From: an uncultured Bacteroidales bacterium
GTDB lineage: Bacteria; Bacteroidota; Bacteroidia; Bacteroidales; VadinHA17
Reading direction: 5' to 3'
NCBI GenBank assembly: GCA_963741935.1
Contig: CAVUJY010000017.1
Span: 14,264 to 78,263, forward strand
DNA length: 64,000 nt
In this document: piece after piece, positions 689 to 51,172 of the stretch
Numbering within the stretch: the stretch's first letter is position 1
How the letters are laid out: every line of letters begins with the position of its first letter
Translations under genes and position numbers: made by a program
The notes under the pieces: model-generated
Told to the model about the DNA's origin: nothing
Seen by the model: the letters and a program-made list of their open reading frames with translations, nothing else
Databases searched by the model: none

Positions 689-796
689 GATTGCATTTTT
701 TTATAAGTCGATTCAGGAATTTAAAATTATAATTAATAAAGATAAATTAAAATGCAGACATATAATGAAATGTGATGCATGATTGTAAATAGCTGA

Positions 797-2299
<1,503 letters not shown>

Positions 2300-3603: not shown

Positions 3604-5075
3604 ATGAAAGCATTATCTTACATATCAGTCATTGTACTCTTGTTAATGGGATCCTGTTCATCCCGGCTTTACACAGGAGCAGAGTACGATGATTTGTACT
3701 ATACTCCATCGGATAACCCAGTTGTATCCGCTGCAACTGCTGATAATGAACGGTATTGCCGATAGTCCTGCAGGAAGGGAAGACTATTATGATAATGTAT
3801 ATGCTTCGGATACACTTGTAGCCGATGATTATGCTGATGCCGTTGATTTAAACAGTTCTATTGTAGATAACAATTATGACAACGGAGGATATGACTATTA
3901 TGATAATTTCTCCTATACAGGCAGACTGAATAGTTTTTATGGTAACTCTTTTTATCCTTACTGGAGAGATCCTTACTATTTTGGAGGTGGTTACTCATCA
4001 TTCGGATATGGATTTGGATTATGGCGGTTTCCCATATTCATATGGTTTTTATAATCCCTATACCTGGAACAATTATTATGCTTATAACGGATTTGGTGGT
4101 TATTACGGCGATTATTACGGCGGGTTCTATCCCGGTTATTATGGGGCTATGGAGGTTATTATGGTGGATATTATGGTGGTTTCGGCTCTTACTATTCTCC
4201 GTATGATTACAACGCATGGGGCGGTTATTCTCATAGCGGTATAAGAGATTATTCTGTTCCTTATGGAAGACGGGATCGACCAAGCACTCTTTCATCGAGC
4301 TGGAACAGGAGTACAACTCCTATGGGTTCTGCAAGGAGAGATTCATATAGCACTTCAGGAGGCACCAGTACCTCAAACAGACGGGTGGCTTCAGGCAGTA
4401 CAGAAAATAGGGCAATAGCAACAGATCAGAGAAGAACTAATACTTCTCCTGTAAACTCAAGACAGGCCGTTTCTTCATCCAGAACCTACGGACAAACGTC
4501 TTCATCGAGAAATGCAACGGTAAATTCATGCTTCAAATCAAAGAGAAGCAGTAAATACGCGTCCGGCATATAACAGTGCAAACAGAAGCTATACTCCAAG
4601 TTATAGTAACCCCAGGATGAGTACACGTCCTTCTTACAATAACAGCAGAGCCACTGAAGGTGTGAGCACAAACCGAAATAATGGTTCTGTCACAAACAGC
4701 AGGTCATTTTCAAATCCTGGTGCAAGAACTCCCGCTACCCCGAGGACATACCAGAATTCCAACTCAAGAAGTAATGCCGGCAGTAATACAGGAACAGGAC
4801 GAAGATTTGAACCTTCATCATCAAGATATTCTCCTCCGGCAAGTTCGAACAGGTCCTATACACCACGAAGTACACAAAGTTACTCAGCACCTTCCAGAAG
4901 CAGCTTCAGTAACAGCAGATCTTCATCATCGTCAGGTGCATTTTCCGGATCACGATCATCATCTTTTGGTGGAGGAGCTTCTTCTTCAGGAAGATCAATA
5001 TCCACTGGTTCTTCATCATCAGGTAGTTCTTCTTCAGGTGGCAGATCTTCTTCAGGAGGCGGTACCAGAAGATAA
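3604..5075 (+). pseudogene. Lipoprotein paralog of the preceding gene with the same Tyr/Gly-rich then Ser/Arg/Thr/Asn-rich layout. Four frame breaks as assembled.
   Basis: ATG 3604 gives MKALSYISVIVLLLMGSCSS, a signal peptide with a lipobox Cys. Fragments 3689..4054, 3939..4244, 4322..4573 and 4617..5075 continue it. It shares the motif Y(S/T)xR(I/L)NxF with gene A (FSYTGRLNSFYG versus YYSSRINRFH), GYYGG repeats, and an SR-rich tail ending ..SSSGGRSSSGGGTRR*. AAGGAGG at 3590..3596 lies 7 nt upstream of the ATG. Confidence 0.6.
4089..4198 (+). repeat. Imperfect in-frame coding micro-repeat encoding G-Y-Y-G-G units.
   Basis: ggttattacggcgattattacggcgggttctatcccggttattatgggg..ggttattatggtggatattatggtggtttcggc translates, after one frame correction in the G-run near 4145, to GFGGYYGDYYGGFYPGYYGGYGGYYGGYYGGFGSYY. 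Confidence 0.5.
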
Positions 5076-5162
5076 ACTTAAAGAATACAATATTTGTTTT
5101 GAAATTATAGTTTCATTCTAAAATAAGAGTGCAGGGATAGATTTACCAAATAGAGATATAAT

Positions 5163-6650
5163 ATGAAAAAGCTAGGATTGATATTATTTGTATGTTTTGT
5201 GATGCTTTCAACCCTTAATTCGCAAAACGTCGACGATGCATTAAGGTATTCTCAGATATTTTATGGAGGAACTGCCCGATTTATGTCAATGGGTGGTGCA
5301 TTTACCGCTTTGGGTGGAGATATGTCTTCATTAAGCCAGAACCCGGCTGGAATAGGGGTATTCAGATCGTCAGAGTTGACATTGTCTCCACAGCTATTTA
5401 AAATTAAAACAACTGCAGGTTTTAATGGTAATACTTCCGATTTCCTGTATAATTTTAATCTTAGCCAGGCAGGTATTGTGAGTAACCTTATCTCGAACAA
5501 TAGAGAATCAGGATTAATCAGCCTTAATATGGGGTACTCTTTTAATAAGACTAATAATCTGAATCAGAGTATGCGGATACAGGGTATAAGTAATTCAAGC
5601 TCAATGGCAGATTATTGGGCCGGTGCTAGTGATGGTACATACTATAGTGATCTTCAGGGTGCTCCCGGAATCGCGTATGATGCCTGGGTAATGGATACAA
5701 TTACTGGTTCAGGGGGAATACGTTATGGAACTGCATTCTCAAATTATGGCGACAACCCACCATCAGTTTATGGTCAGACAATCAGACGTCTGGTATCTTA
5801 CGAAGGTTATACAGGTGAACATGCAATTTCAATAGGTGGTAATTATTCAAATAAGATATACTTCGGTGCAACACTGGGCATAAGCAAACTAAAATATACA
5901 AGCCACTACGAACACCTTGAATCAACTGATATTTCAATGCCTTCAAATTTTCAGAATTTCACATATACCGATCATTATGAGAATAACGGAACAGGATATT
6001 CACTTAAGCTGGGTGCAATAATCAAACCAATAGAAGCTCTTCGCATAGGTCTTGCTTTCCACACTCCAACCATATACCACATAAATGAATATTTCTATGA
6101 GGATATAACATCAAATTTTACCGATGGAGGTCATTATGATATCTCTGATACTCCAATGAGGTACTCATATGCATTGACAACACCGTTCAGGGCCCTGGCA
6201 GGGGTTGCTGTTCAGATCAGAAAGATAGCTCTTCTGAGTGCTGATTATGAATATGTTGATTATAGTTCTGCCAAGTTCTCTGAAACCGGTGATGGTTATG
6301 ATTACAGTGAAAAGAACATGGATATTAAGAACACTCTCCAGTCAACAGGTAATCTTCGCCTGGGTGGCGAACTAAGATTAAACAGACTGTACCTTAGAAC
6401 AGGATATGGTTATTATGGAAAGGCATTCAAACCAGGTGAGGATAATCAGAACCTTGATTACAATACTTTATCATTTGGAGCTGGATTCAGAGAACAGAAT
6501 GTCTCTATCGACTTCGCATATACCAATTATATGTATAAAGAGAAATATATACTGTATCCTCTCGACAACAATTTTGATCCCGCTATAGCCAGTCTTACTA
6601 CAAATAAAAACATGTTTACTGTTTCTCTTGCTTATAAGTTTGGTTATTAA
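5163..6650 (+). CDS. Outer-membrane beta-barrel protein, FadL/PorV-like. This is a family-level guess.
   Basis: Intact 495-aa ORF. Signal peptide MKKLGLILFVCFVMLSTLNSQ. Conserved N-terminal plug-like motif DALRYSQ..GGTARFMSMGGAFTALGGDMSSLSQNPAGIG. Alternating beta-strand pattern and aromatic C-terminus ..FTVSLAYKFGY. Confidence 0.6.
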   Translation: MKKLGLILFVCFVMLSTLNSQNVDDALRYSQIFYGGTARFMSMGGAFTALGGDMSSLSQNPAGIGVFRSSELTLSPQLFKIKTTAGFNGNTSDFLYNFNLSQAGIVSNLISNNRESGLISLNMGYSFNKTNNLNQSMRIQGISNSSSMADYWAGASDGTYYSDLQGAPGIAYDAWVMDTITGSGGIRYGTAFSNYGDNPPSVYGQTIRRLVSYEGYTGEHAISIGGNYSNKIYFGATLGISKLKYTSHYEHLESTDISMPSNFQNFTYTDHYENNGTGYSLKLGAIIKPIEALRIGLAFHTPTIYHINEYFYEDITSNFTDGGHYDISDTPMRYSYALTTPFRALAGVAVQIRKIALLSADYEYVDYSSAKFSETGDGYDYSEKNMDIKNTLQSTGNLRLGGELRLNRLYLRTGYGYYGKAFKPGEDNQNLDYNTLSFGAGFREQNVSIDFAYTNYMYKEKYILYPLDNNFDPAIASLTTNKNMFTVSLAYKFGY

Positions 6651-6673
6651 TACTTTGTTAACTTGTTTGACAT

Positions 6674-6705
6674 AAGGCTGACCCGGTAAGGTCAGCCTTT
6701 TTTTA
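6674..6705 (+). terminator. Rho-independent terminator after the barrel gene.
   Basis: aaggctgac-ccggtaag-gtcagcctt hairpin followed by a T-run (tttttt), 24 nt after the stop codon. Confidence 0.6.
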
Positions 6706-6722
6706 ACTGTCTTATATTCCAA

Positions 6723-7332
6723 TTAATCAAGGTAGTGTGCAGCTTCAGGACCCATATTAAAAAGAAGATCGAGAATGCTCATGCGCGGAACGAAGACTCC
6801 GGGCCGGGTAAAAACCTGTGTATATTCTTTTGACATCAAAAGATGACTTTGATTTCGGTGAGATGGAATATCTGTAGTCGTCTTCCCCATTTAATACAGG
6901 CTCAAAATAAGTCGTGTAAGATATTTTTTTCTTATACTGAAGGATACTTAAAACGGATACCATTAGATCTATATTAAGGTCAAGGAGATATGGATAACAT
7001 TTTGATATAATCTTCTCAAATGACTCAAAATAAAATTCAAAAAATGGTGAAGAGTTATATGCAGCTATTAATGCCCTGAGGTGAACTTGTATCCAGCGTT
7101 TGGAATAGTCAATTTTTATGTCCTTTACCGGAGTTTTATGAATACTTCCGAGTAAAACCGGTACAGAAAGTATCTGAGGTCCGTGAGCTGTCAGAATATA
7201 GCATCTGTTACGATATGTTTGTTTAAGATAATTCTCCTCTCTTTCAATGAATACTTCGTCTGCATTTGCGATCAGACTAAAGTATTCAACAGGAGCCAGG
7301 TAAGCAGTTGAAACGAGTATCTTCCCTGCCAT
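6723..7332 (-). pseudogene. WbqC-family protein (function unknown), with one frame break near the C-terminus.
   Basis: MAGKILVSTAYLAPVEYFSLI..EREENYLKQTYRNRCYILTAHGPQILSVPV..DYSKRWIQVHLRALIAAYNSSPFFEFY. The family-typical C-terminus ..YTQVFTRPGVFVPRMSILDLLFNMGPEAAHYLD* is recovered in another frame, with its stop at 6723..6725. The start lies 11 nt after the larB stop. Confidence 0.7.
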
Positions 7333-7343
7333 TTCTCAGTATT

Positions 7344-8093
7344 TCAGGCAAGTTTGTTAATCATACTTGCAGAGAAACCTGCCCCAAAACCGTTGTCAAT
7401 ATTAACAACAGTAACACCTGTTGAGCAACTGGTCAGCATAGCAAGTAAGGCTGATATTCCTCCAAAACTTGCTCCATATCCCACACTGGTGGGAACAGCA
7501 ATTACCGGTTTGTCAACAAGGCCGCCTACAACACTTGCAAGTGCTCCTTCCATTCCGGCAATGACAATTATTACCCTGCATTTTCTTATTTCCGGCAACT
7601 TATCCACAAGTCTGTGAATACCGGCAACACCGGCATCATAAATTCTTAAAACATTATTGCCGAGTAATTCAGCAGTAATAGCCGCTTCCTCGGCTACCGG
7701 TACATCTGATGTCCCTGCTGTTATAACTGCGATCATACTTTCAGGAGGGACTGTTTTTTTCTTTTGCATTGATATGATTCTGGCCTCCTTAAAGTAAACT
7801 GCGTCAGGTAAAACCTCTTTTACGGCATCAAACATTTCCTGATTTGCCCGGGTTCCAAAAACATTATTCTCGCTGGTGGCCATGACCCTGAAGATCTCTC
7901 TGACCTGTTCAACCGATTTACCTGCACAGTATATAATTTCGGGATATCCGGTGCGTAATTCCCGGTGGTTATCAATTTTTGCAAACCCAAGATCGGTGTA
8001 TGGGAAATTTTTCAGAATATTCAGGGCTTCATCAATACTTTTATCACCTGTTTTTACATCCTTAAGCAGTTTTTCAACTTCTTTAATATTCAT
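7344..8093 (-). CDS. larB: Nickel-pincer cofactor biosynthesis protein LarB (NaAD carboxylase/hydrolase, PurE-like).
   Basis: Intact 249 aa. ..FAKIDNHRELRTGYPEIIYCAGK.., ..ITAGTSDVPVAEEA.., ..VIAGMEGALASVVGGLVDKPVIAVPTSVGYGASFGG.. Confidence 0.85.
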   Translation of the reverse strand: MNIKEVEKLLKDVKTGDKSIDEALNILKNFPYTDLGFAKIDNHRELRTGYPEIIYCAGKSVEQVREIFRVMATSENNVFGTRANQEMFDAVKEVLPDAVYFKEARIISMQKKKTVPPESMIAVITAGTSDVPVAEEAAITAELLGNNVLRIYDAGVAGIHRLVDKLPEIRKCRVIIVIAGMEGALASVVGGLVDKPVIAVPTSVGYGASFGGISALLAMLTSCSTGVTVVNIDNGFGAGFSASMINKLA

Positions 8094-8197
8094 ATCAGGA
8101 AATTAAGTTGTTCTTTCTGTTCTTTAAATTAACAGGTCAACAATAACGTAATTAGTCCATAATCAGGACATAGGTTATTATGTTTGTTCGTGCCGGC

Positions 8198-9001
8198 TCA
8201 TATACTCCGTATTTCAGGGTTAGAGCTTCCGGTCCTGTAACCTTCAAGGTCCAAAGATACATATCGGAATCCTATTTTTTTCATATTGTATATAATATGT
8301 TCTCTGTCAGGAGTATGAATTATCTTCTCAAGATATCCCGGAAGACATTCAATTCTGGCAACATCTCCATGAATCCTGACTCTTGTTCCTGGATAACCTT
8401 TCTCAAAGAGCATGTTTTCTGCCTGTTCTACCATGGCAATCATTTCTCCTTTTACCTCTGTATCATAAGGTATTCTGGTAAGGAGACATGCCATGGCAGG
8501 TTTATCCCATATATACAACCCTTCTTCTCTTGCCAGAAGTCTGATCTCTTTTTTCGTCAGACCCGATTCGAGCAGAGGACTTCTTATATCCATCTCCTTT
8601 AATGCTCTCATACCTGGTCTGAAATCACCCTGGTCGTCATTATTGGTGCCGTCAATAATATATTTATATTTATTTTCCCTGGCAAAATTCACCAGTTCGC
8701 TAAATAGTGTTTTCTTGCACTGGTAGCATCTGTCGATAGGATTATTTCTGATTATCTCAGGGAAAGGAATGTCCAGAATTTTATGCCTGATACCAAATGA
8801 TTCTGTGAATTCGATGGCGTCCTCTATTTCATGTCCGGGTATATATGGTGTTCTGATAGTAACGGCTATAATACCGCTATTTCGTACAGTAGCCGCCCTG
8901 TGCAGGAGAAAGGCGCTGTCAACTCCTCCCGAGAATGCGACAACAAAGGAGTTCAGCTCCTTTAGTATATTATTTAGTTTAAGTGATTTATTTTCTGTCA
9001 T
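8198..9001 (-). CDS. larE: ATP-dependent sacrificial sulfur transferase LarE (PP-loop ATP pyrophosphatase family).
   Basis: Intact 267 aa. PP-loop VVAFSGGVDSAFLL. Conserved Cys-containing segment DKPAMACLLTRIPY. Sits between larC and larB. Confidence 0.85.
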   Translation of the reverse strand: MTENKSLKLNNILKELNSFVVAFSGGVDSAFLLHRAATVRNSGIIAVTIRTPYIPGHEIEDAIEFTESFGIRHKILDIPFPEIIRNNPIDRCYQCKKTLFSELVNFARENKYKYIIDGTNNDDQGDFRPGMRALKEMDIRSPLLESGLTKKEIRLLAREEGLYIWDKPAMACLLTRIPYDTEVKGEMIAMVEQAENMLFEKGYPGTRVRIHGDVARIECLPGYLEKIIHTPDREHIIYNMKKIGFRYVSLDLEGYRTGSSNPEIRSI

Positions 9002-9165
9002 TTTCTGGTGTTTTAATTATGAATTCAACCTTTGATTATATTCGTCCTCCTTATTTTTCTTTCTGTATATACAATCAATCCCTGCCGGCATTATTCCGGC
9101 AAAATCATTAGATATGTTAATTTATTCACAGTTGATCCGGTACAACTTCTCCGGTTTGGTATGTC

Positions 9166-10344
9166 TTAATTTTTATTTTGAACTAACAGAGACATTACGT
9201 AGTTATAGATCTCTTTTACAGGAATGCTTTTTTCCGAAGCAATCTGCCTGCAATCCTCATATTCAGGTTTGAATGAGACTTCCGTCCCATTATAAAATGA
9301 TCTTTTAACGGTTATATCGCCATATTTAGTCTGAAGTTTCTCAATTTTCCTTACAAGTGTATCCTTCCTGAAAGGCAATGTCCTTATACCCAGTGAAGTT
9401 GATTCAGTAAAAATTATACTCTTTAGTACATCAGCTGATTCATTTTCACATATTACGTTGAGTACGATTCCCGGACGCCCTTTTTTCATAATAATATTTG
9501 AAAAGTAAACATCTGAGGCTCCTGCACTGAAGAGCTTCTCGGAAATGTACTGGAAAAATTCAGGGTTCATATCATCAATATTGCATTCGAGCAGAACCGC
9601 ATCATGTCCACTTACGGTATCAGACAGGGTTTCTCCAAGATATACTCTCAATAAATTAGGTATATCCTGTGGATCTTTTTGTCCGATACCATAGCCTGTT
9701 TTTTCAATTTTCATTGTCAGGTCAGGGGTAAAATCAGTTCCCAAGGCTGCAATTATTGCTGCTCCGGTAGGTGTTGTTGCTTCGAAATCAACTCCCCCTT
9801 TTTTAACCGGTAGTCCTTTAATAATTTCAGCTGTTGCAGGTGCCGGAACAGGAAGTTTTCCGTGATCGCACAGAACAAAACCACTTCCCAGTTCAACCGG
9901 TGAAACATGTACTCCATCAACCTTTAAAAAATTATAGCATATAGCTGCTCCAACTACATCAATAATTGAATCAACAGCACCAACTTCATGAAAATGAACC
10001 TTTTCTATTGATATGCCATGAACCATAGCTTCTGCTTCAGCTATCTTCATGAAAATTCTTGCACTCAGTTTTTTTGTTTTGTCATCCAGCTCTGAGTCAT
10101 TTATTATCTTCTCAATATCAGAAAGATGCCTGTGAGCATGTTCATGCCTTGTTTGTTTAACAGTGACTTTTGTTCCTGTAATACCATGTCTCTGGTCCTC
10201 CTGAACCATAAGTTCCCAGCCAGGGAGCTTCAATTTATTCAATTCATTAATTAAAAATGACTTGTCAACACCCAGGTCCAACATCGCCCCCAGATTCATA
10301 TCTCCGCTGATGCCTGAAAAGCAATCGTAACTTATAATTTTCAT
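9166..10344 (-). CDS. larC: Nickel insertion protein LarC (DUF111 family), a single uninterrupted ORF.
   Basis: Intact 392 aa. N-terminus MKIISYDCFSGISGDMNLGAMLDLGVD. His-rich segment TRHEHAHRHLSDI. Typical length. Confidence 0.85.
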   Translation of the reverse strand: MKIISYDCFSGISGDMNLGAMLDLGVDKSFLINELNKLKLPGWELMVQEDQRHGITGTKVTVKQTRHEHAHRHLSDIEKIINDSELDDKTKKLSARIFMKIAEAEAMVHGISIEKVHFHEVGAVDSIIDVVGAAICYNFLKVDGVHVSPVELGSGFVLCDHGKLPVPAPATAEIIKGLPVKKGGVDFEATTPTGAAIIAALGTDFTPDLTMKIEKTGYGIGQKDPQDIPNLLRVYLGETLSDTVSGHDAVLLECNIDDMNPEFFQYISEKLFSAGASDVYFSNIIMKKGRPGIVLNVICENESADVLKSIIFTESTSLGIRTLPFRKDTLVRKIEKLQTKYGDITVKRSFYNGTEVSFKPEYEDCRQIASEKSIPVKEIYNYVMSLLVQNKN

Positions 10345-10554
10345 ATTTTCAAGTCTCTGATATGTTAATAATTTAAAACAATTAAATTTAAGGAATGTTA
10401 ATATATCCCTTAAAATCTTATATTCCGATTCAACCGCTAATATACTACTTACAATCTGTACGAAATAATAAAAAAAAATTGTATTTTCGGCACTTATCTT
10501 CTTTACTGTAAAAGCACTTTTACCACAATAAGAATTAATTAGAATTATAAGATT

Positions 10555-11478
10555 ATGAGAAGAAGAGACTTTCTTAAATCATCGGTTGGAGCTGGTCTGG
10601 CAGCTGGTGCTGCTTTGAGCTTTGGAGGATATGAAAAACTATGGGCTTCATCACCTGCTGCTGCTAAATATGACATGGTTGCTATAATGGGTGGAAACCC
10701 TGATGCTATGTTTGATCTTGGCTATACAGGAGTTTGGAGGAATGGGAACCTTTGTTCAGAAGGGCCAGAAGGTTCTTGATTAAACCGAATATTGGATGGG
10801 ATGTGATTCCTGAGCTCGCTGCTAATACTAATCCTTTGCTCGTTAAACGGATTATTGAGCATTGCTTTAAGGCCGGAGCCAAAGAGGTTTATGTGTTTGA
10901 TCATACATGCGATAACTGGGTTAACTGCTATAAAAATTCAGGAATAGAAAAAGCTGCAAAATCTGCCGGAGCAAAAGTTGTTTCAGGAAATTCGGAAAGT
11001 TATTATCAGCAGATAGAAATTCCGGGAGGCAAAAGACTTCAAAGTGCTAAGGTTCATGAGTTACTTCTTGAAACAGATGTATTTATAAATGTACCTATTC
11101 TTAAGGATCATAGTTCTACAAAAATGACATGTTGTCTGAAAAACAATATGGGACTAGTCTGGGACAGGGGATACTGGCACTCAAATGACCTGAATCAGTG
11201 TATTGCTGATTTTGCCTTGTATGAAAAGAAGCCGGCCTTAAATGTTATTGACTGTTATAACGTTATGGTTAACACATGGTCCTCAGGGTGTTTCAAAAGA
11301 GGATGTGGTTACAATGAAGTCACAGATATTAACCACTGACTGGGTTGCCGGCGATGCAGCTGCTGCTAAAATGCTGAACAGGCCAATTGAGAATGTTGAA
11401 TATATTCCAATTGCTCATAAAATGGGGTTAGGAAACATGAACCTCGAATCTCTGAATATTAAAAGAATAAAAATGTAA
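10555..11478 (+). pseudogene. Tat-signal DUF362 domain protein, with two frame breaks as assembled.
   Basis: MRRRDFLKSSVGAGLAAGAALS is a twin-arginine signal. Fragments 10555..10779, 10734..11339 and 11242..11478 join as ..KVLIKPNIGWDV..NPLLVKRIIEHCFKAGAKEVYVFDHTCDNW..TDVFINVPILKDHSSTKMTCCLKNNMGLVWDRGYWH..VIDCYNVMV..GPQGVSKEDVVTMKSQILTTDWVAGDAAAAKML.. Confidence 0.75.
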
Positions 11479-11484
11479 TTTCTG

Positions 11485-13044
11485 ATGAAATCACCATTAT
11501 TGAGAAGATTCCGAATTATATTTTCAACAATCATATTCATCTGTTTTTTTCTGGTTTTTATTGATTTCAGATCCTATATACCTACCGGCGATATCAATAT
11601 TCTTTTGTATTTACAGTTTATTCCCTCTGTCATAAAGTTCGCTGATCTAAGAACAATTGCCGCAGCAGGCTTTTTATTTGTATTGGTACTTACTTTGCTT
11701 ACCGGACGTACCTATTGCTCTTTTTTATGTCCACTCGGTATCGGGCAGGACATTTTTAGCCGGATTGGCGGACGATTTAAGAAAAAATTCAGAAGGTATG
11801 GCTATAAAAAACCTTTCACCATATTAAGGTATTCAATTTTAGCTATAACCCTTATTGTTACAATGCTATGGGGTATGTATATGGTCATATTACTTGATCC
11901 GTATAGTATTTTTGGAAGGTTCATGACCTATTTTGCCAAGCCTTCAGTATTATACCTGAATAATTTTCTTTCAGGTATTCTTGGAAAGTTTGATATTTAT
12001 ACTCTTAGTAATGTTCCGATTAAAGGTTATCCTCTGATTGCCTATTCCATTCCGGCAGCATTCTTTGTACTTGTTGGTGTTCTTTCTTTTACCAGAGGGC
12101 GTCTGTATTGTAATACTGTATGCCCTGTCGGAACCTTTTTCGGACTCCTCTCGAAAGTATCTCTCCTCAGAATAAAATTTGATGAAACAAAATGTACGCG
12201 TTGTGGCAGATGTTCAATGAAATGTAAGTCCTCCTGCATCGATTTTCTGAATCACGATGTAGATGTCACCCGATGTGTGGATTGTTTTAACTGCATTTCT
12301 ACATGCCAGGATAAGGCACTGTCATATGGTCTTGTTAAGATTAAGAAGAAAGGTCATGAGACTGATGAAAGCAGACGGAGAATTGTTGCAGGGTCTCTGT
12401 TACTGATGTTCGGATTATCACGGACAGCAAATGCCCAGAACACAACAGCCCCAAAACCTAAAAAAGATTCCACAGTAAAAGAGACAAAGACTTCTCCTGT
12501 ATGCCCGCCGGGAGGAAACTCAATTGCTGATTTTAATAAAAACTGTACTTCCTGTTCATTATGCATTAATGCCTGCCCGAATGGCGTACTTCAGCCTGCC
12601 TTTAAACAATATGGCCTTATTGGAATGATGCAACCGGTTATGGATTATCATAAAAGCTTTTGCACATATAATTGTACTATATGTACTGAGATATGCCCCA
12701 CAAATGCATTACATCCGCTGGTACTGGAAGCCAAGAAACTGACCCAGATAGGTAAAGCAAAGTTTATCAAGGATAACTGCATTGTAAAAACAGAAAAAAC
12801 AGCGTGTGGTGCATGTTCGGAGAGTTGTCCTACAAAAGCGGTACATATGGTACCATATGAAGGAAACCTTGTTATTCCTGAAACTAAAGACGATATATGT
12901 ATCGGATGCGGCCATTGTGAATATGCCTGTCCGACAGTTCCCTATAAAGCAATTTATGTTGATGGCAATCCTGTTCATCTGGCAGCAAAAAAGCCTGAGA
13001 ATGAACAATCTGATGTAAAAAGGCCTGTGGAATTCCCATTCTAG
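11485..13044 (+). CDS. Integral-membrane polyferredoxin (NapH/MauN-like N-terminal half plus multiple 4Fe-4S ferredoxin motifs).
   Basis: Intact 519 aa, starting 6 nt after the DUF362 stop. Several TM segments carry CxxxCP motifs (YCSFLCPLG, YCNTVCPVG). Six CxxCxxC(xxx)C(P)-type motifs follow: [64 protein letters not shown]. Confidence 0.75.
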   Translation: MKSPLLRRFRIIFSTIIFICFFLVFIDFRSYIPTGDINILLYLQFIPSVIKFADLRTIAAAGFLFVLVLTLLTGRTYCSFLCPLGIGQDIFSRIGGRFKKKFRRYGYKKPFTILRYSILAITLIVTMLWGMYMVILLDPYSIFGRFMTYFAKPSVLYLNNFLSGILGKFDIYTLSNVPIKGYPLIAYSIPAAFFVLVGVLSFTRGRLYCNTVCPVGTFFGLLSKVSLLRIKFDETKCTRCGRCSMKCKSSCIDFLNHDVDVTRCVDCFNCISTCQDKALSYGLVKIKKKGHETDESRRRIVAGSLLLMFGLSRTANAQNTTAPKPKKDSTVKETKTSPVCPPGGNSIADFNKNCTSCSLCINACPNGVLQPAFKQYGLIGMMQPVMDYHKSFCTYNCTICTEICPTNALHPLVLEAKKLTQIGKAKFIKDNCIVKTEKTACGACSESCPTKAVHMVPYEGNLVIPETKDDICIGCGHCEYACPTVPYKAIYVDGNPVHLAAKKPENEQSDVKRPVEFPF

Positions 13045-13127
13045 AAGTATCTTATTTCAATATTTTTATTCAGGATAAAAATTTCTGAAAACATGATAAT
13101 TATCGCTTCATGATCCTGCCAATAAGC

Positions 13128-13135
13128 TAATTTTG
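13128..13135 (+). promoter_or_regulatory. Candidate Bacteroidota -7 promoter element (TAnnTTTG) ahead of the mce-mmd array.
   Basis: taattttg matches TAnnTTTG and ends 23 nt upstream of the mce ATG. No clear -33 TTTG was seen, so this is a weak motif-only call. Confidence 0.3.
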
Positions 13136-13158
13136 TTGACTGAAACTAACTTATTGGA

Positions 13159-13581
13159 ATGAAACCATCACATATTGAACACATTGGAATAGCAGTAAAT
13201 AACCTTGAAAAAGCCATCAGTTTTTATGAGAAGGTGCTTGGTCTTACATGCTATAATATTGAAGAAGTACCTGAACAAAAAGTAAGGACTGCCTTTTTTC
13301 TGGTAGGACAGACAAAGATTGAGTTACTCGAATCAACCGATCCGGAAGGTCCGATTGGAAAATTTATTTCAAAAAGAGGAGAGGGGATACATCATATTGC
13401 TTTTGCTGTTGAAGAGATTGAAGATAAGCTGGCTCATGCTGAAAAAGAAGGGGTGAAACTTATTGATCGTGTTCCCAGGAAAGGTGCTGAGGGTCTTGAT
13501 ATTGCTTTTCTTCACCCTGCTACAACATCAGGTGTGCTTATTGAGCTATGCGAAAATAAAAAAGGTAATTCTGAAAAGTAA
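13159..13581 (+). CDS. mce: Methylmalonyl-CoA epimerase (VOC/glyoxalase fold).
   Basis: Intact 140 aa. [58 protein letters not shown]. Lies directly upstream of the carboxyltransferase. Confidence 0.85.
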
Positions 13582-13585
13582 GTTT

Positions 13586-15146
13586 ATGGAAAGTCAGGAA
13601 AAGGTCCGAAAGTTAATTGATCTTCGCGAAAAAGCCCGGCAGGGCGGTGGAGAAAAACGGACAGATGATCAGCATGCAAAAGGAAAAATGACTGCAAGGG
13701 AAAGAATTATCATTCTCCTTGACGAAGGCAGTTTTGAAGAGTTTGATATGTTTGTAACTCATCGTACAGATGACTTCGGACTTAAAGACAAAAAGTATCT
13801 GTCAGATGGTGTTGTGACCGGACATGGTACAATAGATGGGAGAGTTGTTTATGTTTTTGCCCAGGACTTTACAATTTTTGGTGGCTCACTGTCTGAGACA
13901 TTTGCACTTAAGATATGTAAAGTGATGGATCAGGCAATGAAGGTCGGAGCTCCGGTTATTGGAATTAATGACAGCGGTGGGGCCCGTATCCAGGAAGGTG
14001 TAAGAAGTCTTGCCGGCTATGCTGAGATATTTGAGCGCAATATTCTTGCGTCGGGTGTCATACCTCAGATATCAGCAATTTTCGGTCCCTGTGCCGGAGG
14101 AGCTGTTTATTCACCAGCTCTCACTGACTTTATTATAATGAGTGAGAAAAGCAGTTATATGTTTGTAACAGGGCCCAAGGTTACAAAAACGGTAACAGGA
14201 GAAGAGATATCTACAGAAAATCTTGGTGGATCGGAGGTTCATGGAACTAAATCGGGCGTTGCTCATTTCATAGCTGAAGATGAGGAAGAGGGATTGATGC
14301 TTATAAGAAAATTATTAAGCTATCTGCCTCAGAACAACCTTGAGGAGCCACCTCTGATCGATTGCAGTGATCCAATTGAACGTAAAGCTGAAGAACTGAA
14401 TTCCATTATCCCTGAAAATACTAATCAGCCTTATGATATAAAAGATGTTATCTATCATATCGTAGACAATAGTGAATTTCTTGAGATTCATTCTGCCTAT
14501 GCGAGAAATATAGTAGTCGGTTTTGCCCGGATGGGGGGTATGCCAGTAGGCATTGTAGCAAACCAGCCTATATTTCTTGCCGGCGTACTTGATATTGACG
14601 CTTCCAGAAAAGCTGCCAGATTTATCAGGTTCTGTGATGCCTTTAATATCCCAATAGTTACTCTGGTTGATGTTCCTGGATTTCTTCCGGGCAGCAGACA
14701 GGAGTATGGTGGCATAATTGTGCATGGTGCAAAACTTATGTTTGCTTATGGTGAAGCAACAGTTCCAAAGATAACAGTCACATTACGAAAATCTTACGGG
14801 GGAGCTCATTGTGTTATGTCCTCGAAGCAGCTTCATGGTGATGTTAATTATGCATGGCCATCCGCAGAAATCGCTGTTATGGGGCCATCGGGAGCGGTTG
14901 AAATTCTTGAGGGTAAGATATATCGGGGATATTTCAGACCCTGATGAAAAGGCTAAATTCATTTCAGAGAAAGAGTCGGAATATCGTGAAAAATTTGCAA
15001 ATCCTTATGAGGCAGCACGATATGGCTACATTGATGACATAATTGAACCACAGAATACGCGATTCAGGGTAATACGGGCACTGCGTACAATTGCTACAAA
15101 AAAGGATCCTGGCCCAATGAAAAAGCATTCCAATATTCCTCTTTAA
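13586..15146 (+). pseudogene. mmdA: Methylmalonyl-CoA decarboxylase alpha subunit / acyl-CoA carboxyltransferase, with one frame break near 14930.
   Basis: ATG 13586: [76 protein letters not shown]... It continues in fragment 14811..15146 (..EKFANPYEAARYGYIDDIIEPQNTR..). Confidence 0.85.
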
Positions 15147-15158
15147 TATCTGATTATT

Positions 15159-15521
15159 ATGTCTCCGACATTTTCAATTATTGACTTTTCAGCTGTAGAT
15201 AAATCGGCAGTGACTATAGTGTTTGTAGGACTGACGATTGTTTTCTCCGTATTAATTACAATATATCTGTTTTTCAGGTATTTATTGCCTGTTTTTCTTA
15301 GGATGACTTTAAAGAGAAAAGCTAAAAAACAAGGATTTCCCGAACCTTCTGAAAACCTGCTTAATGTTCCGGGCGATGTTAGTGCAGCAATTGGAATGGC
15401 ATTATATCTTCATTTTAATGAAGCACATGATGAGGAAAGTAATATAATAACAATAAAAAGAGTATCAAGAACATACTCTCCATGGAGTTCTAAACTATAC
15501 AGCATGAGAAATCTGAAATAA
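15159..15521 (+). CDS. OadG/MmdD-type small membrane subunit of the sodium-pumping decarboxylase.
   Basis: 120 aa with a single N-terminal TM (VTIVFVGLTIVFSVLITIYLFF). The call rests on its position between the carboxyltransferase and the biotin carrier. Confidence 0.55.
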   Translation: MSPTFSIIDFSAVDKSAVTIVFVGLTIVFSVLITIYLFFRYLLPVFLRMTLKRKAKKQGFPEPSENLLNVPGDVSAAIGMALYLHFNEAHDEESNIITIKRVSRTYSPWSSKLYSMRNLK

Positions 15522-15574
15522 ATCACTGAAAGTTTCAGTTGCAGCGAAATTTGGATAACCGGATATTTTAAGAA

Positions 15575-15994
15575 ATGAAAAACTATAAGTTTACAATTCA
15601 CGGTACTCAGTATGAGGTCGATATTCTTTCTATAGAGAGCAATGTCGCTCAAATTGAAGTTAATGGTACTCCTTATACTGTTGAGATACAAAGAGAAGTA
15701 AAACAAATTAAAACCCCGACTATCGTGCGGTCAGCTGTAAAGGATCCCCATCAGGAGATTGAGAAAAAATCAGGAGGACCAAAAACTGAGATCAAGTCAC
15801 CACTGCCAGGTGTTATTCTTACTATCCATGTTAAGCCCGGCGATAGTGTAAAGAAGAATCAGAAACTGTTCATTCTTGAAGCAATGAAGATGGAGAATGA
15901 AATTAAAGCTGATCGTGACGGGATAATAGCAAAAATTAGTGTCATTCCCGGGCAGTCTGTACTGCAGGAGGAAGTGGTAATGGAAATGAACTAG
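15575..15994 (+). CDS. Biotin carboxyl carrier subunit (MmdC-like).
   Basis: 139 aa with a biotinyl-lysine motif, LEAMKMENEI, inside a biotin/lipoyl-attachment-type C-terminal domain. Confidence 0.8.
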   Translation: MKNYKFTIHGTQYEVDILSIESNVAQIEVNGTPYTVEIQREVKQIKTPTIVRSAVKDPHQEIEKKSGGPKTEIKSPLPGVILTIHVKPGDSVKKNQKLFILEAMKMENEIKADRDGIIAKISVIPGQSVLQEEVVMEMN

Positions 15995-15996
15995 TT

Positions 15997-17350
15997 ATGG
16001 AGACCAGGAAACTTTTCACTGTTTTAGGAATATTGATAGTATTATCAATAACCTGGACAGCTTTTGTTAAGCCTGAGAAAGAACGGGCTGCCCAATTCAG
16101 TAATATGGTTACAACCATCACGGCAAGCCAGGGAAAACAAATAGATCAAAACATTGAAAAGCCTGATGCAATGACAGGAATCAGACAATTCTGGTCCTAC
16201 ACAGGCTTCAGAAACTTAACAACCGGTCATATTGCAATGTTGGTGATAGGTCTTGTATTTATATTTCTTGCAATAAAATATGAATATGAACCCTTGCTGC
16301 TGGTCCCGATTGGTACCGGTATTCTTATAGGAAATATTCCTTTTTTTCAGGATGGAGATGTGAATCTTCAGATTGGAGTATATCAACAGGGAAGTGTACT
16401 TAATTACCTGTATTTTGGTGTGCTGAAGGGAGTTTATCCGCCATCTGATCTTCCTGGGTCTGGGCGCAATGACTGATTTTTCATCACTGATATCAAACCC
16501 AAGGCTGATGCTGCTTGGTGCAGCTGCCCAGATAGGAATATTTATTACTTTTATAGGGGCCCTGATACTTGGATTTTATCCCCAGGAAGCTGCAGCCATC
16601 GGTATTATTGGAGGAGCAGATGGTCCAACTGCCATATTTCTCTCATCAAAGCTTGCGAATGGAATAAATATTCTTCCCGATGGTAATACTGTGAAAAACC
16701 TGATCGGTCCCATCGCTATCGCTGCCTATTCTTATATGGCTCTTGTACCTGTTATTCAGCCACCGGTAATGAGACTTCTTACAACAATGGATGAGAGAAA
16801 AATAAGAATGAAACCTCCAAGAGCTGTTTCAAAAGTGGAAAAAATGCTGTTCCCGATAATAGGATTATTAATCACTCTATTTATAACTCCAAGCGCCCTT
16901 CCTTTACTTGGGATGTTGTTTTTTGGGAACCTTCTTCGGGAATCAGGAGTGACCAGGCGTCTTGCTGAGACTGCCAGAACTTCCCTGATTGATATAGTTA
17001 CAATACTTATAGGGCTAACAGTAGGAGCTTCCACCCAGGCTGATGTGTTTCTTACACCCAGTTCGATACTTATTTTTGCACTCGGAGCATTCTCATTTGT
17101 TTTCGCTACTGCCGGAGGCATAATGTTTGCCAAATTCATGAACCTGTTCCTTAGTTCTGAAAATAAAATTAACCCTCTTATAGGTTCTGCCGGAGTCTCG
17201 GCGGTGCCTGACAGCGCAAGGGTATCGCAGATTGAAGGATTAAAAGCTGATCCTACAAATCACTTGCTGATGCATGCCATGACTCCAAATATTTCAGGGG
17301 TTATAGGATCTGCAGTAGCTGCAGGAATACTTTTGGGTTTTCTTGGATAA
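15997..17350 (+). pseudogene. mmdB: Sodium-translocating decarboxylase beta subunit (OadB/MmdB family), with one frame break near 16445-16470.
   Basis: Fragments 15997..16476 and 16469..17350. ..LLLVPIGTGILIGNIP.. then [56 protein letters not shown].. Confidence 0.85.
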
Positions 17351-17391
17351 AAATCTGTAATTTTGTTATTATTTATTAATTGGAAGCAAAA

Positions 17392-18623
17392 ATGAAACCA
17401 ACAGTAGCAGCTTCAGGAAACTCCGGACCTAAGGTAAGATCAGATTGCGAAGTTGCTCTTGAACTAAGTGGCGCAGGGAGGATTATCTATAGATCTTGTC
17501 TCTAAAGTGAAGGTACTATATGGTGAATCTATAAAAACTCTTGTTTCAGAGGTGCTTGGCCATTTCGGCGTTAAGAATGCAATTGTAAAGATTAACGACA
17601 GCGGGGCACTTCCTTTTGTAATTGCAGCAAGGACAGAGGCTGCTGTTAAGCAACTTATAAAGACAGATATTGAATATTTGCCTGATTTTCTGCCTGAAAA
17701 TGGTTATGCGACAGCACGTTCCCGTTTCCGTTTTTCGCGCTTATATCTGCCGGGTAACAATCCTTCGCTAATGATAAATGCCGGACTGCATTCCGCTGAT
17801 GGTATAATTCTCGATCTTGAAGACTCAGTTGCACCTGAAAAGAAGGATGAAGCACGTATTCTTGTCAGGAATGCTCTCCGCCAGATAGATTTCTTTGGAG
17901 CTGAGAGAATGGTCAGGATAAACCAGGGAGACAGAGGCATAGAGGATTTGCGTTTTCTGCTTCCACACAATGTAAATCTGATTCTTTTGCCCAAATGCGA
18001 AAGTGCAGCTATATATAAACCAGGTAGATAAAGAGATTAAAATTCTCAGAGAGAAATTTAATCTTAAAAACCCGGTTTACCTTATGCCCATAATAGAATC
18101 AGCACTGGGAGTTGAAAACTCATTTGAGATTGCCCGATCCTCAGAAAATATTGTTGCTATTGCTATTGGTCTTGAGGATTACACTTCTGATCTTGGTGTA
18201 CCACGTACAACTGAAGGAAAAGAATCATTTTATGCGCGTACCAGACTTGTTGTAGCCGCTAAAGCAGCAGGCATTCAACCTATTGATTCTGTTTTTTCGG
18301 ATGTCGGAGATATGGAAGGCCTGAAGAAAAATGTTCTTGACTCCAAAGCATTAGGGTTTGAAGGTATGGGTTGCATACATCCCCGGCAGATCAGAATAAT
18401 TCAGGATGGTTACGCCCCTGATGAACAGGAAATAGAAAAATCAAAAACGATAGTACATGCTTTTAAGTCTGCAAAGCTTTCAGGCCTGGGTGTAGTAGCT
18501 ATAGGATCAAAGATGATTGATCCTCCTGTTGTGGCCAGGGCGCAGAAAACAATCGATCTTGCAATCAGCCTGGGACTACTGAACGATAATTGGGCCGGGG
18601 AGGAAATATCAGATATTAAATAG
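17392..18623 (+). pseudogene. citE: Citrate lyase acyl-carrier (CitD-like) domain fused to the citryl-CoA lyase beta subunit (CitE), with two frame breaks as assembled.
   Basis: ATG 17392 gives MKPTVAASGNSGPKVRSDCEVALE.., a CitD-like N-terminus with candidate prosthetic-group Ser. It continues in 17468..18031 (..VKINDSGALPFVIAARTEAAV.. then ..SRLYLPGNNPSLMINAGLHSADGIILDLEDSVAP..) and 18003..18623 (..IIESALGVEN..AIGLEDYTSDLG..GMGCIHPRQI..). Confidence 0.75.
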
Positions 18624-18641
18624 GTATTAAAAAAGAGTAAT

Positions 18642-20207
18642 ATGGCCGTCAAGACTATAATAAATGCTGCAGGCAGAGCAATACCAGCAGAGATAAACGG
18701 GCAGCAGGTAATACCTTTTAAGGGAGTTGGCAGGCACAGGCCCATAGGAAGGAAATATGCTCCTCCTATTCCCACATGCGCTGATTATCCTGATGACGGC
18801 AATAAGGTGGTCAGCTCACTTGAGGAGGCTCTCAGGCTTTGCGGCCTGAAAGACGGGATGACCATTTCAACACATCATCATCTTAGAGACGGCGATCTTA
18901 TCAGCAATAAAGTCTTTGAACTGGCTTCCGGTATGGGAGTGAAGGATCTTGTGTGGTTTCCTTCAGCATCATTTCCCTGTAATGATATCTTAATAAAATA
19001 CCTGGAAGATGGTACCATAAATCGCATAGAAGGAAGCATGAACGGTCCTCTCGGACGGTTTGTATCTGAAGGAAGAATGAAGGGTACAGCTGTTCTGAGA
19101 TCGCATGGAGGCCGTGTTCAGGCTATGCAGGACGGCGAAGTAAAGATCGATATAGCCATTCTGGCTGCGCCGACAGCTGATTCATTTGGAAATGCAAAGG
19201 GAACAGGAGGTACATCAGCCTGTGGAGTAATTGGTTACGGAAAAGCTGATTCAATGTTTGCCCATAAGGTTATTATTATTACCGATAATCTTGTGGATAT
19301 GCCTTGCTTCCCGATGGAGATAGAGGGGAATTATGTCGACTATGTTGTTGTAACTGATAAAATAGGGATTCCGGAAAAGATAGTCTCCGGGACAACTCAG
19401 ATAACTAAAAGCCCTGACAGACTGTTGATTGCAGACCTGACAGCAAGATTCCTTGAAAAATCAGGCATACTTAAAGATAATGTTACCATGCAGGCTGGTG
19501 CCGGCGGGACTTCACTTGCAATAGCGGTATTTGTTCAGGAGATTCTCCGCAATAAAGGCTGGAAATCAAAATTTGGTTTTGGAGGAAGCACAAGATATAT
19601 GGTTGACATGCTTGAGAAAGGTCAGATGGGATATATTCTTGATGCCCAGGCATTCGATCTGGATGCAGTGGCTTCTGTCGAGAACAATCCCAATCATATA
19701 CCATATCCTGTTTATAATGCCTATAACTATCATTCAAAAGGTAACCTCACCAGTTTGATGGACATTATGATACTTGGAGCCACTGAAGTAGATCTCAACT
19801 TTAACGGGAATGTTGTTACTCATTCCGACGGATATCTCCTTCATGGAATAGGTGGATGGCAGAACTGCCTTCATGCCCGTAATGTTATTTTGCCGATCCC
19901 TTTGTTCCGCGATCGTATTCCTGTTATTGTTGATGAAGTGACAACACTTTGCGGACCGGGAGAATTAATAGATGTAATAATAACCGAAAGAGGTATTGCA
20001 ATAAATCCGTTGCGACAGGATCTGATCGACAGTCTGGAGGGTAGTGGACTTCCTCTTCGCACAATTAAAGAACTTAAGGAAGAAGCTGAGAAGATATGTG
20101 GAAAACCACAGAAAGCAAAATTCGATGAAGATATTGTTGCAGCTGTTAAGTGGGTCGATGGTACAGTGATTGATGTAATCAGGAAAATAAAAATGGAAAA
20201 AAAGTAA
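18642..20207 (+). CDS. citF: Citrate lyase alpha subunit (citrate CoA-transferase).
   Basis: Intact 521 aa. ..[17 protein letters not shown].., ..[11 protein letters not shown].., ..[17 protein letters not shown].. Follows citDE by 18 nt. Confidence 0.85.
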
Positions 20208-31286: not shown

Positions 31287-31736
31287 CTATTCTTTTTCAC
31301 TATTTGAAATGTTACCGTAAATATATAATGAATGATAGTGAGGTGTAAATCCATGTAATTCACTGGCCGTATTGATTATCTCATGTATTCGCGGATCGCA
31401 GAATTCAATTACTTTGCCTGTCTCAATATCAATAAGATGGTCGTGCTGTCCGCACTGGTAGGCTTTTTCAAACTGGGCAATATTCTTACCGAACTGGTGT
31501 TTTATTACCAGATTGCAGTCAAGTAACAGTTCTATTGTATTATATAATGTTGCCCTGCTTACCCTGTAATTTTTATTCTTCATAAAAATATAAAGCGACT
31601 CAATATCGAAATGACCACTTCGCGTATATATCTCATCAAGAATTGCATATCTCTCAGGTGTTTTTCTATGCCCTTTTTTCTCCAGATAGTCAGTGAAAAT
31701 CTTCTTGACTGTCATTTTTGTATCATCACTAAGCAT
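31287..31736 (-). CDS. Fur-family metalloregulator. It cannot be resolved to Fur, PerR or Zur.
   Basis: Intact 149 aa. ..[49 protein letters not shown].. Confidence 0.8.
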
Positions 31737-40245: not shown

Positions 40246-41524
40246 ATGAAAAGAGATACCTGATTTTTGACCTTATTGAAAAGGAGCGTCAGCGTCAGAT
40301 AAACGGAATCGAGTTAATAGCTTCTGAAAATTTTGTCAGTCCCCAGGTACTTGAAGCAATGGGTTCGGTAATGACAAACAAATATGCTGAAGGATATCCG
40401 GGAAATCGTTATTATGGTGGATGTGAGATCGTTGATCAGTCGAACAGATAGCTATTGACCGGTTAAAGAAATTTTTGATGCAGAATATGCAAATGTTCAA
40501 CCTCATTCCGGAGCACAGGCAAATATGGCTGTATTCATGACAGTTCTAAAGCCCGGAGATACTTTCATGGGACTTAACCTTGCTCATGGAGGGCATCTTT
40601 CTCATGGATCACCGGTTAATTCATCCGGATTGTTTTATAAACCAGTTGCTTACAGTGTTAAAGAAGAGACTGGTCTTGTTGATTATGATATGATGGAAAG
40701 AACTGCCCTTAGAGGAGAAACCAAAAATGATAATAGGTGGGGCATCAGCTTATTCACGTGAGTGGGATTATGAAAGAATGAGAAAGATAGCTGATATGAT
40801 CGGTGCAATATTTATGGTTGATATGGCGCATCCGGCAGGACTGATAGCAGCCGGACTTTTAAAGAATCCTCTGAAATATGCTCATATTGTTACATCAACA
40901 ACTCATAAGACTCTTCGAGGTCCAAGAGGTGGAATAATTCTTATGGGCAAGGATTTTGTAAATCCATGGGGAATAACAACTAACAAAGGTGAAGTAAGAA
41001 TGATGTCATCACTTTTGAATTCAGCTGTTTTTCCGGGTATACAGGGCGGCCCGCTTGAGCATGTTATAGCATCAAAAGCAGTTTCATTCGGTGAAGCTCT
41101 TGATCCACCATTCATAGAATATCAGAAGAGGGTAAAAAAAAATGCTGTTGTAATGGCGAATGCATTCATGAAAAAAGGTTATAAAGTTATTTCTGATGGA
41201 ACTGATAACCATCTTATGCTTATTGACCTCAGGACAAAATTTCCTGATATATCTGGTAAAAAGGTTGAGAATACACTTGTCCGTGCGCATATAACTGTTA
41301 ATAAAAATATGGTTCCATTTGACAGCCGTTCACCATTTCTTACATCGGGATTGAGAGTGGGTACTCCGGCCATAACTACAAGAGGACTGAATGAGGAGCA
41401 TATGGGATTGATTGTAGAAATGATTGATGAGGTTATTTCAAATATTGAAAATGAATCTGTGATCGGCAATGTAGGGAAAAGAGTAGTTGAAATGATGAAA
41501 TCTTTTCCTTTGTTTTCTGAATAA
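40246..41524 (+). pseudogene. glyA: Serine hydroxymethyltransferase, with at least 3 frame breaks.
   Basis: ATG 40246. ..[55 protein letters not shown].. read across frames. Fragments 40525..40761 (..[12 protein letters not shown]..) and 40727..41524 (..[15 protein letters not shown]..). Confidence 0.9.
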
Positions 41525-48623: not shown

Positions 48624-48685
48624 TGAAAAGAGTAAAAAAATCAATTGTCAAAATAACCTAAAATATACCGAAAAACAAAGTATTA

Positions 48686-50794: not shown

Positions 50795-51172
50795 GTGATG
50801 GAGGAGTTAAGGATATCACCGACAAAGAATACGCCGGAGGTCATTTTAAATCCAGAGGGGATAATAAAGATCAGGGGAAGATCAATTCATGAGAATGTAA
50901 CTGATTTTTTTTCACCGGTGGAAGACTGGGTGAGTGGGTATATTGAAGTACCTGCCGACCTTACATGTGTTGATGTCAATCTGGAATATTTCAATAGTGC
51001 CAGTGCAAAGGTATTCATACATATTTTGCAGAAAATAACTTATGTAACCTTAAAACATAAGAAGTTCATTTTTAACTGGTATTATGAGGATGGAGATGAA
51101 GATATACTTGAACGTGGGGAGTATTTTGCCTCAGTTCTGGATGTCCCTATTACTTTCATAAAAATCAGCTGA
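50795..51172 (+). CDS. DUF1987 (SiaC-like) domain protein.
   Basis: Intact, about 124 aa. ..ISPTKNTPEVILNPEGIIKIRGRSIHENVTDFFSPV..W..L..VNLEYFNSASAKVF..ILQ..F.WYYEDGDEDILE.GE.. The ATG at 50798 may be the true start. Confidence 0.65.
   Translation: MMEELRISPTKNTPEVILNPEGIIKIRGRSIHENVTDFFSPVEDWVSGYIEVPADLTCVDVNLEYFNSASAKVFIHILQKITYVTLKHKKFIFNWYYEDGDEDILERGEYFASVLDVPITFIKIS

Follow-up and report, generated by a model that had tools for sequence, protein, structure and literature searches.

An orphan larC-larE-larB operon of uncultured Bacteroidales and its WbqC-family and DUF362 neighbors as candidate users of the cofactor nickel-pincer nucleotide

We analyzed a stretch of 64,000 nt, referred to throughout as the window, from an uncultured Bacteroidales bacterium of the VadinHA17 lineage (assembly GCA_963741935.1, contig CAVUJY010000017.1, positions 14,264–78,263). 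The window carries larC, larE, and larB, the genes for synthesis of the cofactor nickel-pincer nucleotide (NPN), but no larA, the gene for lactate racemase. Directly downstream on the same strand lies a gene of the WbqC family, and on the opposite strand larC diverges from genes for a DUF362 protein with a twin-arginine translocation (Tat) signal and for a membrane polyferredoxin (table 1). Both neighbors are considered here as possible users, or clients, of the cofactor. DUF362 is the stronger of the two candidates encoded in cis, although an earlier reading of the window from its letters alone (the sequence-only reading) favored WbqC and named DUF362 only in passing.

Table 1. Features of the Locus and Frame-Broken Genes Elsewhere in the Window (window coordinates)
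Feature	Position	Strand	Size and state	Predicted product, family matches, or remarks
larC	9166–10344	minus	392 aa, intact	Fused LarC1+LarC2 CTP-dependent nickel insertase; PF01969, TIGR00299, NF052512
larE	8198–9001	minus	267 aa, intact	PP-loop ATP-dependent sulfur insertase, [4Fe-4S] CxxC...C type by motif; TIGR00268
larB	7344–8093	minus	249 aa, intact	Nicotinic acid adenine dinucleotide (NaAD) carboxylase/hydrolase; NF033503, PF00731
WbqC-family gene	6723–7332	minus	About 202 aa after repair of one indel	Fourth gene of the operon; PF08889
DUF362 gene	10555–11478	plus	306 aa after repair of three indels (about 10723, 10778, and 11271)	Tat-signal protein; PF04015
Polyferredoxin gene	11485–13044	plus	519 aa	Membrane polyferredoxin; Fer4 families
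larC/DUF362 intergenic region	10345–10554		210 nt	Between divergent genes
Hairpin	6674–6699		10 bp, GC-rich	Terminator-like; lies where the WbqC and outer-membrane-protein genes converge
Outer-membrane-protein gene	5163–6650			PorV/FadL-like; converges on WbqC
proS	747–1957		Split by indels	
relA/spoT	31811–34094		Split by indels	
glyA	40727–41524		Split by indels	
tamB	44139–48644		Split by indels	
metC	51165–52326		Split by indels	

Identity of the lar Genes

The three lar genes are complete, codirectional on the minus strand, and free of frame breaks, as the sequence-only reading had described them. LarC matches PF01969 (E = 4e-147), and every product exceeds the cutoff of its NCBIfam equivalog model, with 220 bits versus 90 for LarC1 (TIGR00299), 145 versus 50 for LarC2 (NF052512), 291 versus 150 for LarE (TIGR00268), and 301 versus 175 for LarB (NF033503). 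Two motifs picked out earlier were located, the His-rich TRHEHAHRH segment at residues 65–73 of LarC and the SGGVDS PP-loop at residues 24–29 of LarE. In Thermotoga maritima, the [4Fe-4S] cluster of the catalytic form of LarE is held by Cys92, Cys95, and Cys172 (PMC9283937), and the window protein has the same Cys92-x2-Cys95...Cys172 arrangement. Because these ligands are present, we assign it by motif to the catalytic [4Fe-4S] type rather than to the sacrificial single-Cys type, contrary to what the name of the NCBIfam model suggests.

Intergenic gaps measure 164 nt between larC and larE, 104 nt between larE and larB, and 11 nt between larB and the WbqC-family gene, and judging from the gene content and its conservation described below, the four genes form a predicted lineage-conserved operon encoding a complete NPN pathway. 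By family membership, LarB would carboxylate and hydrolyze NaAD to P2CMN (the mononucleotide of pyridinium-3,5-biscarboxylic acid), a catalytic [4Fe-4S]-type LarE would convert both carboxylates to thiocarboxylates, and LarC would insert nickel, the finished cofactor presumably serving a client other than LarA.

Known client types were sought in the window and in related loci. Pfam scans of about 60 open reading frames (ORFs) of the window, comprising all of at least 190 aa and most of those of 110–190 aa, found no LarA (PF09861/PF21113), no aldo-keto reductase (AKR; PF00248), and no ornithine cyclodeaminase (OCD). A six-frame hmmsearch of the window and 86 related loci with a profile of the LarA core likewise gave no match (best E above 1). 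This profile is built around H174-K184-H200, including the HFFAGFSGGRK core; the core sequence was confirmed against PDB 5HUQ, and the residue numbering was verified on one full-length sequence. Used as a homolog query, the 56-aa core returned short fragments only, and plasmid records supplied LarA proteins of full length. Both searches bear out the earlier statement that LarA is absent from the 64 kb, and the literature agrees with its remark that larBCE without larA is already known: approximately 15% of genomes carry the pathway alone and approximately 9% carry it together with LarA (PMC11796402), and non-LarA clients, AKR-type proteins among them, have been found by neighborhood logic (PMC13524815).

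Conservation of the Locus and Repeated Loss of larE

Relatives were collected by a LarC scan with one genome per species, which recovered 80 loci, all from uncultured Bacteroidales and with LarC identities of 64–82%, the nearest species representative standing at 82%. Look-ups of the window's LarC and of the 191-aa WbqC ORF by exact sequence matched no record. Their layout, read by tblastn with the window proteins, reveals a conserved 12-kb block in which the genes for methylmalonyl-CoA epimerase, the polyferredoxin, and DUF362 occupy one strand and larC, larE, larB, and WbqC the other, followed by the converging outer-membrane-protein gene. DUF362 and the polyferredoxin are divergent to larC in approximately 70 of 75 related species. 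Across the clade, the LarC and LarB proteins are full length and share 57–87% identity with those of the window, which points to purifying selection.

Within the block, at least ten related species have no larE, or a truncated one, in the stretch from larC to larB, representing at least eight independent events on the LarC tree. It is absent from loci L001, L002, L007, L012, L016, L017, L019, L031, and L036, survives as a remnant in L004 and L042, and is also deleted or truncated in L083/L084 and L087. The two closest relatives of the window (L001 and L002) are among the larE-less species, in which LarC, LarB, and WbqC nonetheless stay full length. Such species either have a second larE elsewhere or belong to a lineage in which the pathway is changing. 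The losses could be taken to mean that the cluster as a whole is a decaying or repurposed relic, making no NPN or retaining LarB and LarC for another product. We consider this very unlikely for the window, where LarE is intact with all of its motifs; the selection acting on LarC and LarB throughout the clade also argues against decay, and a paralog encoded elsewhere could supply LarE to the species that have lost it from the operon.

The WbqC-Family Gene

The sequence-only reading placed the start of the WbqC-family gene 11 nt past the larB stop and its end at 6723. Both positions are right, but the gene contains one frameshift: the ORF as read has 191 aa and stops at 6757, owing to an indel in an A-run at about 6828–6831, and the true C-terminus (...EYTQVF...LSILDLLFNMGPEAAHYLD, then the stop) runs on in another frame to 6723. 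Against a PF08889 gathering score of 21.3, the truncated ORF scores 102 bits (E = 6e-29) and an intact ortholog (P0016) 134 bits; orthologs in related species are intact and 201 aa long. In all but three of approximately 75 related loci, the gap between larB and WbqC is 4–18 nt or the two genes overlap. Given these short gaps, the 11 nt seen here, and a strong hairpin after WbqC that, being terminator-like, would mark the end of the operon, the gene is very probably cotranscribed with larB, as had been suggested. It would then ride on the lar transcript, perhaps as an accessory.

Among the neighbors, WbqC shows the tightest coretention with larB. The linkage is not missing in relatives; it was seen in every related Bacteroidales locus with a contig reaching that far, persists where WbqC identity falls to 46% and LarC identity to 57%, and is maintained both in the larE-less species and in a subclade lacking an adjacent DUF362 gene. 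The lar-linked proteins also form a distinct high-identity group, in that sampled homologs of at least 46% identity are all linked to lar genes and those of 45% or less are not. It is conceivable on these grounds that WbqC, cotranslated with LarB, itself depends on NPN as an enzyme or assists in making or delivering the cofactor, and a faint resemblance of its modeled fold to BshC (probability 0.72) points the same way. We nevertheless regard such a role as unlikely. The linkage is limited to a single clade, whose members share synteny over the entire block, and the adjacency of WbqC to lar genes therefore carries little independent weight. PF08889 is a large family (5766 cluster representatives at E below 1e-3) whose sampled members away from lar genes lie in sugar-nucleotide or housekeeping contexts, for example beside a GHMP kinase and a nucleotidyltransferase gene or between genes for thioredoxin and a 7TMR-HDED protein.

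An AlphaFold2 model of an intact ortholog, with a predicted local distance difference test score (pLDDT) of 94.7, has no significant relative among solved structures by Foldseek. The closest match is to the nucleotide-binding ligase BshC (E = 0.29; template modeling [TM] score, 0.49). The model bears no likeness to a nicotinamide- or NPN-binding fold, and sequence searches of the PDB with WbqC came back empty. In the literature searched, WbqC proteins appear only as annotations in glycan loci, with no characterized member and no paper tying the family to NPN, nor is WbqC among the lar-co-occurring families in the main text of a 2026 survey. With the block syntenic throughout, distant homologs in unrelated contexts, and no NPN-like fold, the earlier suggestion that WbqC could be an NPN client is not supported by the linkage; adjacency at the level of the clade weakly suggests a role as client or accessory.

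The DUF362 Protein and Its Polyferredoxin Partner

The window fragment of DUF362 matches PF04015 with 143 bits (E = 1e-41) and an intact ortholog (P0296) with 154 bits, relative to a gathering score of 24. Orthologs in related species are intact, 306 aa long, and 62–91% identical. The protein begins with MRRRDFLK, and its N-terminal segment MRRRDFLKSSVGAGLAAGAAL combines a twin-arginine motif (S/T-R-R-x-F-L-K) with a hydrophobic stretch. With the TIGR01409 Tat model the score is 17.9 bits (cutoff, 16.7), and the Pfam TAT_signal match falls below its cutoff. An RRRDFLK signal of this kind fits, as far as a motif can indicate, the export of a protein loaded with its cofactor beforehand.

The polyferredoxin gene starts 7 nt after DUF362 and is paired with it in every locus with a long enough contig. 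The N-terminal half of its product is NapH-like, with two CxxxCP and two [4Fe-4S] motifs, and several [4Fe-4S] motifs make up a C-terminal half that is NapG/NapF-like. Scores of the Nap models are all below cutoff (NapH-type models, 86 and 78 bits vs. 213 and 234; NapG, 52 vs. 269), and the protein resembles NapH/NapG in domain make-up only. Between the halves, at about residues 296–316, an internal Arg-Arg-Arg is combined with a hydrophobic segment, like an internal Tat-type or anchor signal.

In the intergenic region between larC and DUF362, a local MAFFT alignment revealed a core of approximately 65 nt (about 10437–10500) that is conserved in 71 related loci and has variable flanks. The core includes an A/T run and, on each strand, boxes resembling TAnnTT, and the region may hold back-to-back promoters of the Bacteroidetes type or an operator. 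No riboswitch or other RNA element was found with Rfam in 6400–13200, and a scan for sigma-70 promoters, a class distinct from the Bacteroidetes type and the only one within its scope, found no more sites than in shuffled sequence.

DUF362 as a Relative of LarA

DUF362 (PF04015) and the N-terminal domain of LarA (PF09861) belong to one Pfam clan, and DUF362 has served as the outgroup of LarA trees (PMC11770544). Direct comparisons agree: LarA of Vescimonas matches PF04015 above its gathering score (E = 6e-7, 30.2 bits), LarA of Lactiplantibacillus plantarum matches it at E = 8e-5, and the match of a DUF362 protein from Subdoligranulum to Lar_N, although non-significant (E = 0.29), falls exactly on the His...Lys segment. 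By these profile matches, DUF362 is homologous to LarA at the level of the clan.

In LarA, H174 is catalytic, K184 tethers the NPN cofactor, and H200 is a nickel ligand. Alignments by hhalign and hmmsearch, non-significant on their own, place H185, K195, and H208 of DUF362 on these three residues, and the Pfam cross-matches agree with this register. A K-x-H-x9-K...H pattern is invariant in 197 DUF362 proteins, 120 from the clade and 77 of a Parabacteroides type, and its His-x9-Lys...His core is kept in homologs of only about 25% identity from Subdoligranulum (reading K-T-H) and Streptomyces (R-T-H).

A DUF362 gene also lies near lar genes outside the Bacteroidales. Only four plasmid-database records contain a detectable DUF362 relative. 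In one of these, Streptomyces sp. NBC_01450 (L100; NZ_CP109481.1, 34000–54000), DUF362 is approximately 4 kb from larE-larB-larC, in a cluster comprising genes for a LuxR regulator, DUF362, a cyclase, and a chorismate-binding enzyme, then larE-larB-larC and an apparent nonribosomal peptide synthetase gene of more than 2300 aa. No LarA is encoded within 20 kb, and the cluster looks like an orphan lar cluster embedded in a biosynthetic, secondary-metabolism locus. In a record of Acetoanaerobium noterae, DUF362 and LarC are encoded on one replicon, far apart.

We propose tentatively, at a probability of a little under 0.4, that the cofactor is used by the LarA-related, Tat-signal DUF362 protein, the likeliest of the clients encoded in cis. 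Under this proposal, DUF362 would receive the cofactor in the cytoplasm, leave it in folded form through the Tat system, and then exchange electrons with the quinone pool via the adjacent NapH/NapG-like polyferredoxin. It may be further speculated that DUF362 constitutes a second, redox-type, NPN-using branch of the LarA superfamily, periplasmic and wired to quinones in the present case and with the Streptomyces larEBC-DUF362 cluster as a second example; this broader notion we hold to be rather unlikely as matters stand.

Several observations weigh against DUF362 as the client. At the level of the protein, the window sequence and P0296 match PF04015 only, not PF09861, and have no LarA_C domain, and the residues by which LarA binds its hydroxy-acid substrate (D72, R75, Q295, and K298) are missing. 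Thin profiles of DUF362 and the LarA core gave no match by hhalign, and more diverse ones a non-significant alignment (probability 0.4%), albeit in a consistent register. In the most divergent ortholog (L078), the Lys and the last His are replaced by Gln and Tyr. An AlphaFold2 model built from a shallow alignment reached a pLDDT of only 46, and no solved structure was matched by DUF362 in sequence searches. The searched literature contains no experiment tying any DUF362 protein to NPN, and we know of no precedent for a hydride-carrying pincer cofactor coupled to one-electron Fe-S carriers.

The distribution of DUF362 is a second difficulty. A monophyletic subclade (L024, L025, L032, L034, and L055) keeps larC-larE-larB-wbqC with no adjacent DUF362 or polyferredoxin gene, and conversely DUF362 stays in the species that have lost larE from the operon at least eight times over. 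In Parabacteroides distasonis, the DUF362-polyferredoxin pair has tgt, lptF/G, and sugar genes around it. Scanning metagenomes with a Parabacteroides-anchored alignment yielded 80 loci of this type (47–56% identical to the window module and 55–100% identical to the P. distasonis protein), in which the polyferredoxin always follows DUF362 and no larB, larC, larE, WbqC, or LarA occurs within up to 10 kb. Since it occurs elsewhere without lar genes, the DUF362-polyferredoxin pair stands as a module of its own, and only in the present clade does it adjoin lar.

An alternative is that the client is encoded elsewhere in the genome, with WbqC and the DUF362-polyferredoxin pair as unrelated neighbors kept by inherited synteny, and we take this to be a serious possibility, slightly less probable than the DUF362 proposal. 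Candidates for such a client would be racemases or epimerases of the LarA superfamily, aldo-keto reductases of the NphT type, ornithine cyclodeaminases of the NPAD type, and members of an unknown family. The syntenic 12-kb block includes plainly unrelated genes, and both WbqC and the DUF362-polyferredoxin pair occur outside the clade with no lar genes nearby. LarA homologs and other clients are, moreover, often not adjacent to lar genes (PMC11796402), and AKR-type clients are now known (PMC13524815). On the other hand, neither the window nor the loci of 86 relatives, each of roughly 20 kb, contain such a gene, and a client at a distance leaves unexplained both the LarA-like His/Lys/His pattern of DUF362 and its independent adjacency to lar genes in Streptomyces.

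Frame Breaks and Genomic Surroundings

Single-base indels, at homopolymer sites and others alike, split many housekeeping genes of the window (table 1), and recG and rnfD are frame-broken as well. Because essential genes are broken, and frequently, these are most likely assembly indels of an error-prone assembly, and apparent pseudogenes in the window are therefore not to be trusted at face value. Real pseudogenization with the lar genes selectively spared was rejected as an explanation, as essential genes are broken too and the broken genes are otherwise 88–91% identical to intact orthologs. The sequence-only reading had singled out the lar genes as a rare unbroken multigene stretch. They are indeed unbroken and breaks are common elsewhere, but by a rough estimate three intact genes in a row are not statistically remarkable.

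The locus is flanked at 13159–20207 and 55458–61411 by genes for methylmalonyl-CoA epimerase, a Na+-translocating methylmalonyl-CoA decarboxylase set, citrate lyase, and an Rnf complex, which fit an anaerobic propionate-type fermenter. A Fur-family regulator gene is found at 31287–31736, approximately 21 kb from the lar operon. Just upstream of the outer-membrane-protein gene, positions 3689–5121 hold overlapping ORFs of extremely low complexity, rich in Ser, Gly, Tyr, Asn, and Arg and with no Pfam match.

Comparison with Known Systems

Which proteins use NPN in the approximately 15% of genomes that make the cofactor without LarA is an active open question, and two new client families were reported in 2025–2026. 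Taken alone, the present locus merely adds to the orphan lar operons already known, but it is of value in providing two testable client candidates, DUF362 and WbqC. DUF362 is a very large family, and if its members bind NPN, nickel-pincer chemistry would extend to exported, Fe-S-coupled redox enzymes, and some, at least, of the genomes with larBCE and no larA could be explained by DUF362.

One point of reference is the lar operon of L. plantarum (larA-larB-larC1/C2-larD-larE), which provides lactate racemase and shares LarB, LarE, and LarC with the window at equivalog level; in a plasmid copy of that species, larA and larB are adjacent. The window differs in having no larA, no larD channel gene, and no larC1/C2 frameshift, LarC being fused, and in the extra fourth gene of the WbqC family. 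Its LarE is of the [4Fe-4S] CxxC-C type by motif, in contrast to the sacrificial Cys176 type of L. plantarum. Also comparable are the systems in which larB, larC, and larE occur without a nearby larA and in which neighbors were nominated as clients and a His and Lys pair was sought (PMC13524815). The window, unlike these, has no AKR or OCD gene, its neighbors being the WbqC-family and Tat-signal DUF362 genes, neither of which has been reported as an NPN enzyme in the literature searched.

The neighbors have known counterparts of their own. As in the WbqC proteins (PF08889) of O-antigen and capsule clusters, the WbqC protein of the window scores above the Pfam gathering score, and its distant homologs occur beside sugar-nucleotide genes or a DegT aminotransferase gene, whereas the subgroup of the window is fixed directly downstream of larB with no glycan genes nearby. 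The polyferredoxin recalls the NapGH quinol dehydrogenase module of periplasmic nitrate reductase, with a NapH-like membrane half and a NapG/NapF-like poly-[4Fe-4S] half beside a Tat-signal catalytic candidate; in contrast to NapGH, the halves are fused in one protein, the partner is DUF362 rather than NapA, and the model scores are far below cutoff. Finally, DUF362 shares with the LarA superfamily (DUF2088; PF09861 and PF21113) a Pfam clan, and cross-family hidden Markov model matches, with residues placed on H174, K184, and H200 in alignments that are non-significant on their own. It departs from the superfamily in its Tat signal and its Fe-S partner, features that hint at redox chemistry and not at racemization.

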